From Eledone cirrhosa (lineage: Eukaryota): a stretch of DNA of 64,000 bases. Below the pieces are notes generated by a model. It was not told the DNA's origin. It made no database searches and saw only the letters and a list, made by a program, of their open reading frames with translations. A program made the translations under genes and the position numbers. Each line of letters starts with the position of its first letter. The first letter of the stretch is position 1. Location of the stretch: positions 82,026,001-82,090,000 of the forward strand of contig OZ024746.1 in the NCBI GenBank assembly GCA_964016885.1. The letters run 5' to 3'. Below, piece after piece: positions 37,870 to 38,838 of the stretch.

Positions 37870-38270
37870 ATAAACAATAATTTATTTGGTTTGTTGATTA
37901 TTCAACAAAGTTAATTTTACAACAGATTAGAAGCACTCAACGAATTTTTTCTGGAGTATCGTTAATATCAATAATATTAATAAATGGAACATATCTTTAT
38001 AAAACCATATTTATTTTGTTATACGTATTTCAAGGGTACTAATATTTTAGTACTCTTTCGTCAGATAAAATATAATAATTGGTGTAAAGATAGTGACATA
38101 TCTTCATGTGAACTTCATGTTATAAGTTCAGTGAGAACTTATAACATGAAGTTCACATGAAGATATGTCACTCTCTTTACAAACGTACTTAAATATTAGT
38201 ACCCTTGAAATACGTATTATAAAATAAATATGGTTTTATAAAGATATTTTCCATTTATTAATATTATTAA
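37870..38270 (-). mobile_element. Family A fold-back element
   Basis: Inverted arms centred ~38132; the + strand arm has lost the CTGA core; agcactcaac tail; flanked by (TA)n. Confidence 0.8.
38012..38072 (-). ncRNA. Type I hammerhead ribozyme
   Basis: TATTTTAT, CTGACGA, AAGAGTACTAA aata TTAGTACCCTT, GAAA, TACGTA, TA^, ACAAAATA. Confidence 0.85.
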
Positions 38271-38554
38271 TATATATATATATATATATATATATATACA
38301 TTTAGAACCACCAGCGTGAGAAGAATATAAGCTACTAGAGGTATTGGTAAAACATTAAAATTAAAAGTATAAATTGAAATGAAAAATCATCCTCACCTAA
38401 ATCACACATGTACACACTCACCAGGAGCATGTTTCGCCATTTTAGTGGGTTCCAATACGGCCCGATGGAAATTCCTGTAATGAAAAACACACTCTCCTGT
38501 GTCTTTCCCCTCTATATATTGTATATATATATATATATATATATATATATATGC

Positions 38555-38838
38555 AAAAGTTCTATTTAAATTGTTGGGATATAACAAGCAAATATTTTTA
38601 TAACTGATATAAAGCACTCGACAAGTATTTGGAGTAAATATACGATATTAACTATCCTGATGTCTTCCAAAAGTAACGGTTGCATTTTGAAAGGGTACGT
38701 CAATGTTTATTTATAAAACTGGTATATATTGTATTTTGTCTGATGAAGGCATACCATAATTTAACATGGTATCCTTGAAATATGTATAATAGAATGGATA
38801 TGGTTTTATAAATATAGTTTCCATTTGTTAATATCGTA
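38555..38838 (+). mobile_element. Family A element
   Basis: Inverted tail (aagcactcgacaag) 5' of an HHR; 3' flank tatggttttataaatatagtttccattt shared with the ~25010 and ~38230 copies. Confidence 0.75.
38732..38795 (+). ncRNA. Type I hammerhead ribozyme
   Basis: TATTTTGT, CTGATGA (38740), AGGCATACCAT/ATGGTATCCTT, GAAA (38777), TATGTA, TA^, ATAGAAT. Confidence 0.85.

Follow-up and report, generated by a model that had tools for sequence, protein, structure and literature searches.

Interval 37870–38838 of the 64,000-nt stretch of Eledone cirrhosa DNA analysed here (the window; assembly GCA_964016885.1, contig OZ024746.1, positions 82,026,001 to 82,090,000) is bounded by (TA)n microsatellites and contains two elements, which bear two intact hammerhead motifs on opposite strands and a dead partner copy at 38181–38232. 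We refer to these motifs and their relatives as family A. Family A is a hammerhead motif situated ~100 nt short of the 3′ end of a Penelope-like retroelement that has more than 45,000 copies in this genome, and it constitutes a new family within a known kind, the Penelope-element hammerheads.

In the plus-strand copy at 38726–38802 the core and the helices were located in a type I layout. Helix I is formed by a 5′ strand at 38732–38739 (UAUUUUGU) and a 3′ strand at 38789–38796 (AUAGAAUG), CUGAUGA lies at 38740–38746 and GAA at 38777–38779, and the helix II hairpin spans 30 nt (38747–38776), with C10.4 at 38750 opposite C11.4 at 38773 (C·C). The helix III palindrome AUAUGUAU (38780–38787) is followed by A17 at 38788, and the predicted cut falls between 38788 and 38789. 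The minus-strand copy at 38006–38078 (the 38.0-kb copy) belongs to a TACGTA subfamily and has CUGACGA at 38064–38058 (position 7 is free), GAAA-UACGUA, a helix II at 38057–38032 with strands AAGAGUACUAA/UUAGUACCCUU, A·C at pair 4 (38054/38035) and a predicted cut between 38020 and 38019. Elsewhere in the window, an inverted pair is made up of a right half at 24933–25009(+), with helix II strands AAGCGCACCAA / TTGGTTGCCCTT starting at 24954, C·C at pair 4 (24957/24980) and a bulged U after pair 7, and a left half at 24739–24814(-), with C·C at pair 4 and C·A at pair 6. The copy at 6622–6688(+) has a short helix II, GGACGTAC / GTACATCC, that starts at 6643 and carries C·A at pair 4 (6646/6659). 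A member of a sister family, with the palindrome TGCGCA, a helix II of ~15 bp and C·U at pair 4, is found at 11097–11178(+).

All five family A copies of the window (5/5) have the complete hammerhead core (C3 U4 G5 A6 N7 G8 A9, G12 A13 A14, A15.1-U16.1, H17), an 8-bp helix I, AUA before the predicted cut and a TAYRTA palindrome. Four of them had been cited in a first-pass annotation of this DNA, and their letters and positions proved correct: each has CUGAUGA (CUGACGA at 38.0 kb), GAAA, the palindrome AUAYRUAU and A17, and the AUA before the cut and the self-complementary TAYRTA described there are seen in every one. The copy at 24739–24814(-) adds a fifth. The core pattern has 13 matches in the window where 3.2 are expected, and none of 100 shuffles gave as many as 13.

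Family A is abundant throughout the genome. The 147-nt module around the 38.7-kb copy gave 919 first-look candidates, of which 40 were scored and yielded 57 matches, many of them 96–100% identical. A 3′ junction pattern, GAAATAYRTATAAYARAA, has 37,733 matches in the 3.0-Gb genome, compared with 22 for the reversed control. When the core is required together with C opposite C at pair 4, 45,425 copies are found genome-wide, and the sister family (palindrome UGCGCA) adds 22,100. The contigs of four runs contain many family A copies as well as junction variants, and show neither ends nor strands. For detailed counts we used the first 100 places of the junction pattern, which lies outside helix II and outside the CUGAUGA box, together with twenty arbitrary 10-kb stretches and the window. 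This sample yielded 117 anchors, 97 with an intact box; nine copies from a TACGTA list were added for diversity and counted apart, and 30 loci from similarity searches were excluded from every count as biased to one subfamily. The CUGANGA box is intact in 106 of the 126 sampled copies, all selected by the GAAA-palindrome anchor.

The stems of family A vary in sequence while remaining paired. Helix I has eight pairs, each formed in 89–95 of the 97 intact copies, with position 9 unpaired in 78, and helix II is 8–11 bp long across the family. In the same copies, helix II pair 2 is A:U in 63 and G:C in 23, pair 3 G:C in 48 and A:U in 35, pair 5 G:C in 74 and A:U in 9, and pair 6 U:A in 64 and C:G in 22. 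An alignment of 106 rows (99 distinct) covers 16 pairs in helices I and II. Pairing is kept in 92.8% of its cells, compared with 33.7–55.9% when the strands are slid, and both-sided changes occur at 13 of the 16 pairs (161 cells). The covariation score of 0.347 exceeds that of shuffles (0.203 ± 0.007; 0 of 500 reach 0.347), a control that ignores relatedness, and that obtained with the partner slid by one to three columns (0.067–0.098), a control that keeps it. The proposed covariation of the stems is thus borne out on a family alignment.

The wobble pairs are distributed asymmetrically. Over 15 pairs in the 97 copies there are 144 G·U cells and 31 A·C cells, and in amplified G·U states the ratio of G·U to A·C is 35/1 at helix II pair 1, 13/1 at helix I pair 2 and 20/3 at helix I pair 4; at the palindrome centre the corresponding amplified G·U-type state counts 57 against 1. 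Because G·U outnumbers A·C, which a double-stranded DNA palindrome would not bring about, selection is taken to act on the sense single strand, that is, on RNA. These observations support selection on helices I and II as RNA structure, and the interpretation first proposed, selection on ribozyme function with an internal-loop tertiary contact and cleavage as dimers, is supported in part.

Helix II is interrupted at its fourth pair, which is non-Watson–Crick in 94 of the 97 intact copies and a standard pair in three. The forms are C·C (78), C·A (6), U·C (4), A·C (4) and C·U (2), and the mismatch is present in all 11 helix II haplotypes that occur at least twice in the sample. C10.4 is conserved in at least 90% of copies, on a par with the core; of the remaining helix II positions, all but pair 7 have changed. 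Genome-wide, the 45,425 copies with C·C compare with 243 with C:G and 343 with G:C, scattered across all subfamilies; the non-repairing control, A·C, counts 388. As neither repaired form is commoner than this control, repaired copies represent an ordinary level of decay. Opposite C10.4 stand C, A or U, and G in no large amplified lineage seen; the sister family has C·U (by eye) at the same place in its ~15-bp helix II. The conserved mismatch described for the four cited copies therefore holds across ~45,000 C·C copies and the sister family. Pair 4 is indeed unpaired in all four, with one correction: the subfamily of the 38.0-kb copy reads AAGCGTACT (also given as AAGCGUACU) and A·C occurs only 388 times genome-wide, so the 'a' of that copy is background decay, a private change and not the family state.

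Two-step compensatory changes have been fixed at pairs 2, 3, 5, 6, 8 and 9, and the one-step repair of pair 4 has never become a major form. Since six neighbouring pairs were compensated while a stabilizing one-step repair never spread, the mismatch is probably maintained by selection. That it is a tertiary contact, as the first-pass annotation had suggested, is a tentative idea; a docking or hinge role is plausible because canonical animal hammerheads, with their 4-bp helix II, have the start of loop 2 at position 4 (PMC4209133, in its description of these forms). It is possible, if doubtful, that the interrupted long helix II, with 3 bp, C opposite C, A or U, and a further 4–11 bp, constitutes a distinct hammerhead architecture in which C10.4 is obligately unpaired. 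We also considered a switch to an alternative helix, as some copies carry upstream a AAGGGTAC that is exactly complementary to the 3′ strand of helix II. This idea was dropped because the upstream element varies among subfamilies (GGTTATGTC, GAATATGTC or GGATATGTC) without tracking helix II. A TATGTCA / GGTAYGTCA element ~45–55 nt upstream of the CUGAUGA box (38694–38702 in the window) is kept in nearly all family A subfamilies despite differing flanks and shows no covariation with helix II.

Helix III is present only as the self-complementary 8-mer AUAYRUAU, which every sampled copy contains because the anchor requires it. The centres are not equally used: among the 117 sampled copies TATGTA occurs 57 times, TATATA 50, TACGTA 9 and TACATA once, and genome-wide the CA centre (TACATA) is found in 159 scattered copies compared with 697 for the CG centre. 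Decay of CG at CpG is expected to yield UG and CA equally, and only UG is abundant. The predicted self-duplex energies of TATGTA, TATATA and TACGTA are −4.2, −5.2 and −8.5 kcal/mol, and that of TACATA is −0.2 kcal/mol. The two centre bases are adjacent, so they have no means of pairing within one molecule and pair only with a second molecule. The avoidance of C·A at the palindrome centre fits pairing between two molecules, and family A likely acts as a dimer through helix III. Hammerheads with a tiny palindromic helix III are thought to act as dimers in the published account of the Penelope motifs (PMC4209133).

The carrier was found by walking upstream of copies with a shared long body. Copies that share the 3′-terminal module (H) also share this upstream body, 95% identical over 2.75 kb, and one such body (locus L222, open reading frame (ORF) at 6314–8218) encodes a 634-amino-acid (aa) open frame with a YRDD motif, a Cys-rich stretch and, by eye, a GIY-YIG-like C terminus (VYI...YVGST). 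The 634-aa ORF has 352 relatives at E ≤ 1e-5 (best 1e-133, ~40% identity), cephalopod and coral proteins among them, and Atlas clusters neighbouring it bear RVT_1 and GIY-YIG. A profile built from the genome's own Pfam-validated GIY-YIG segments matches the C termini of 32 of 121 proteins, not the 634-aa ORF itself. The ORF family, which includes the L222 ORF and its relatives P0002–P0121, is ~550–800 aa long, often lies on contigs of ~2.5 kb and has hundreds of relatives; a scan of the carrier ORF and 20 relatives gave no Pfam score, and precomputed tables give PF26215 for many relatives. With the C-terminal 206 aa of the ORF, 74,257 first-look candidates were found in the genome, and the 150 that were scored are 89–100% identical.

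In 15 of 20 ORF copies the family A motif is found on the same strand, 1,462–1,842 nt beyond the stop, and is itself followed by (TA)n. Since the motif sits downstream of the ORF in these copies, the short copies are 5′-truncated 3′ ends. Of 116 copies, 67 reach (TA)n at a median distance of 51 nt from the cut site and end there, and 28 continue into an extension of ~95 nt with a GYYGASTGYT motif. The 5′ ends are truncated at many points and the inner junctions vary. Among the close pairs at the 100 listed places, 11 are inverted with tails outward (-,+), two are direct and none has tails inward (+,-). According to PMC8557442 and PMC11167929, Penelope-like elements characteristically insert into (TA)n, with an inverted 5′-truncated copy and an optional tail at one end, the tail reflecting two start sites of reverse transcription. 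A (TA)n target, 5′ truncation, an inverted truncated copy on the 5′ side and an optional one-end tail are all present in family A. The identity of the carrier goes beyond the earlier reading of this DNA, and a large share of the 3-Gb genome appears to consist of Penelope-like elements. Two other ways of finding an autonomous partner were tried and rejected: the 30 best of 10,595 candidates from a GIY-YIG search carry other hammerhead families downstream and none carries family A, and the ORFs beside sampled copies gave unrelated matches to reverse transcriptase (RT), PHD and endonuclease domains. Of the 10,595 first-look candidates for PF01541 (GIY-YIG), 150 were scored and all 150 exceed the Pfam cut-off.

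Interval 37870–38838 can be read in these terms. Its right-hand element ends with the H module at 38653–38836(+), which carries the 38.7-kb hammerhead, terminates in ...GTTAATATCG and runs into (TA)n from 38837; the module is 96–100% identical across loci L001–L030 and is also found 1.5–1.8 kb past the ORF stop. To its left, at 38553–38652(+), lies an inverted piece of the optional 3′ extension (tail), marked by the AGCACTCGAC motif and flanked on the left by (TA)n. It includes a 10-nt inverted end fragment (38643–38652), and its junction to the H module differs among copies. The other element, at 37965–38273, is a head-to-head inverted pair of two 5′-truncated copies with their tails outward, in which the arms 37965–38053 and 38185–38273 are 94% complementary and the arms 38066–38129 and 38135–38198 86%; the layout recurs in L002–L030 and in 11 of 13 close pairs. 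In the dead partner at 38181–38232(+), CUGAUGA and the 5′ strand of helix I are deleted; GAAA, the palindrome and the tail are still there, as is the 3′ half of helix II. The minus-strand copy continues into its own optional extension at 37872–37964(-), with the GTTGAGTGCT motif, which abuts (TA)n at ~37790–37869.

The closest known relatives are the minimal hammerheads of Penelope elements (Cervera & de la Peña 2014, PMC4209133). As that paper describes them, they share with family A a type I motif at the element end, a short palindromic helix III and presumed dimer, a helix II longer than canonical, thousands of dispersed copies in families rich in compensatory changes, and dual motifs on opposite strands 100–700 bp apart; a Drosophila virilis variant with a bulged base in the middle of helix II resembles family A. 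Family A departs from the published form in lacking the unpaired nucleotide that separates A9 from 10.1 there. The nucleotide following CUGAUGA is paired with the one that precedes GAAA in 91 of 97 copies (A:U 50, G·U 35, G:C 6), whereas a highly conserved G10.1-C11.1 pair is given for the published form. Helix I is 8 bp long instead of 4–5 bp, and family A has the invariant C mismatch at 10.4, although figures and alignments of the 2014 paper may show similar forms. In a narrow literature search, which did not extend to the figures and supplementary alignments of many invertebrates in the 2014 paper, no account of a conserved mismatch at 10.4/11.4 turned up. The genome holds the described Penelope form as well as family A: CTGATGA-A-GGAC-TAGC-GTCC-GAAA, which looks like a canonical minimal hammerhead and has both an extra base following A9 and a G10.1-C11.1 pair, occurs in the window at 57974–58005(-) and at L033 and L043.

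The animal non-long-terminal-repeat (non-LTR) retrozymes (Cervera & de la Peña 2020, PMC7229834; Li et al. 2026, preprint) likewise consist of AT-rich short repeats with type I hammerheads, and in the portions of these sources on the subject the amphibian forms need dimers, one axolotl form has a U·U mismatch in helix II, and the repeats are proposed to derive from Penelope-like elements. Retrozymes, however, form head-to-tail tandem arrays of 170–400 bp that are expressed as circular RNA (PMC7229834; Li et al. 2026), whereas family A consists of dispersed 5′-truncated 3′ ends and inverted pairs, and the axolotl mismatch is at the helix II base and not at pair 4. No tandem array was found in the window, and only two direct close pairs occur among the 100 listed places. 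The satellite 2 hammerhead of newts and salamanders has a weak palindromic helix III, cleaves as a double hammerhead and has a 4-bp helix II with conserved loop–loop contacts in tandem satellite repeats; it resembles family A in its weak palindromic helix III and differs in helix II length and tandem setting. Compared with the Penelope-like elements described by Craig et al. 2021 (PMC8557442) and Frangieh et al. 2024 (PMC11167929), family A shares insertion at (TA)n, heavy 5′ truncation, an inverted truncated 5′ copy, a one-end extension and a hammerhead near the 3′ end. Its optional extension is ~95 nt long where 30–40 bp is given there, and, unlike the elements treated in those papers, its ORF has diverged beyond the reach of the Pfam RVT_1 and GIY-YIG models. 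A metagenome scan for relatives gave 51 matches that we judged to be chance (helix II pairing in 0 of 51, TACATA in 9 of 51) and that are usable only as a negative control.

On balance we consider it probable that family A is a 3′-end motif of a Penelope-like element that is predicted to cut itself after AUA, likely works as a dimer and likely has its C10.4 kept by selection. Only element RNAs that fold into a hammerhead would then be copied onward, which would give rise to the covariation. Two RNAs, or two tandem copies, would pair their AUAYRUAU sequences into an 8-bp helix III and be cut after A17, and C10.4 would have to avoid a Watson–Crick pair; the reading we prefer is that it would be a hinge or docking point for helix I or the element's protein. 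Several observations weigh against this explanation. RNAalifold predicted no consensus pairs on the gappy, AU-rich 106-row alignment, and the single-sequence fold was not better than shuffles (z = −1.2). Rfam gives no match at gathering score in the window, and no hammerhead family is among the 28 and 40 matches at E ≤ 10 over 37990–38840 and 12 loci. The 634-aa ORF has no Pfam match, including to the RVT_1 and GIY-YIG models, and no match in a PDB profile search. An AU-rich 8-bp helix III duplex is weak, and, with 11 of 13 close pairs inverted, there is mostly one sense motif per transcript, so that a dimer would have to form in trans, between separate transcripts.

The case for cleavage itself is also contested by published work, and this favours a reading in which the hammerhead-shaped fold is kept for recognition by the element's RT/endonuclease near the start of copying, and not for self-cleavage, with the unpaired C as a protein contact. 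Penelope-element hammerheads cleave poorly in vitro (PMC4209133, for the motifs reported on there), and, in the experiments on one Penelope-like element described in PMC11167929, in vitro insertion did not need cleavage and no RNA sequencing ends fell at the cleavage site. In family A the short-form 3′ end follows the motif after ~50 nt (median 51), and the optional second end lies downstream of the motif as well; these two ends match the two internal reverse-transcription start sites of that element (PMC11167929), and a cut at A17 would separate the 3′ priming end from the body. A mere protein-binding junction, however, needs none of the core bases, all of which are kept in 106 of the 126 sampled copies across subfamilies whose stems differ elsewhere, and the constraint on the palindrome centre fits RNA–RNA pairing. 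We therefore regard recognition without cleavage as unlikely.

Somewhat less unlikely, although still improbable, is that families A and A′ inherited the mismatch from their common ancestor as a neutral frozen accident with no role of its own, tolerated because the 3 plus 4–11 flanking pairs hold helix II together. The counts of repaired copies (243 and 343) are similar to that of the neutral control (388), and no selection after insertion is visible. Few independent events, at the level of master copies, underlie the case for selection: the opposing base has changed from C to A and from C to U perhaps two or three times, and the chance that none of these changes would be to G is ~0.3–0.44. 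Pair 7 (A:U) is nearly invariant too, so the conservation of C10.4 is not unique. Some repaired haplotypes recur, with ~16 of 100 listed G:C rows of the GAGGGTACC type (by eye) and the repaired GGACGTAC...GTACGTCC at three or more loci, and repair is therefore not clearly lethal. What argues for selection is that C10.4 is as conserved as the core while the other helix II positions save pair 7 changed, that its partner is C, A or U and never G in amplified lineages, and that the one-step repair never spread in ~67,000 copies while six neighbouring pairs made two-step changes. A foldback or miniature inverted-repeat (MITE) type DNA transposon, in which the repeats would be DNA palindromes and the hammerhead-like core incidental, would account for the many copies in inverted pairs flanked by TA-rich DNA and for the generic microRNA (miRNA) hairpin models that score on those pairs. 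It is very hard to reconcile with the varying inner junctions and scattered 5′ truncations, with outer ends that are both element 3′ ends (11 of 11 inverted close pairs are (-,+), none (+,-)), with the 67 of 116 copies that are single 3′ ends in (TA)n, with strand-specific wobbles (144 vs 31) not expected from double-stranded DNA, and with a module that forms the end of the 3′ untranslated region (UTR) of an RT-type ORF; in unrelated DNA, none of the 51 chance matches to the core pattern has a paired helix II. We consider this explanation highly improbable.

Further hammerhead-like families occur in the same genome. One, CTGAAGA-GGTCACAGAGTGTGTGAC-GAAA-GAACTATG, is found in the window at 39184–39212(-), also at L032, L035, L042 and L150, and is repeated at many random genome places. 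A third family, CTGATGA-TTTCTCACGAAT-GAAA-GAGTTCTA, forms a tail-out inverted pair at 57341–57371(-) and 57518–57548(+), and the palindrome between its copies (57385–57504) is scored by miRNA models, mir-5014 at 72 bits and below its gathering score. Another family, with a TACGTA palindrome and a different helix II (CGTAAGCCGGTCATA), is present at 62968–63001(+) and 60097–60163(-). The whole window has an extreme density of (TA)n and (CA)n microsatellites. Its 263 Rfam matches at E ≤ 10 are, among those listed, almost all to miRNA or small nucleolar RNA (snoRNA) models on simple repeats or transposon hairpins, with none at gathering score; a 278-nt near-perfect inverted repeat around a microsatellite (58396–58673) is matched by the MIR7723 model on both strands, below gathering score. 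In a random genome stretch (L043, 7623–8312(+)) an open frame contains Galaxin-like repeats (PF24748, E = 1.4e-21).

Penelope hammerheads are known, and whether they cut, act as dimers or are passengers is the question on which this family bears. Its ~45,000 copies and the 22,000 of the sister family are natural variants that show compensatory changes, strand-specific wobble and two single-site constraints, the unpaired C at 10.4 and the avoidance of C·A at the palindrome centre, each of which gives a sharp and cheap bench prediction. For annotation it is relevant that Rfam models miss this abundant class of animal hammerheads and that miRNA models score on the inverted pairs instead. If the interrupted helix II is indeed a distinct architecture, its internal loop would replace the loop 1–loop 2 contact as a docking point or hinge, or would be a handle for the element's protein, and the mismatch would tune a dimer-dependent cleavage switch in a retroelement that forms a visible share of a 3-Gb genome.

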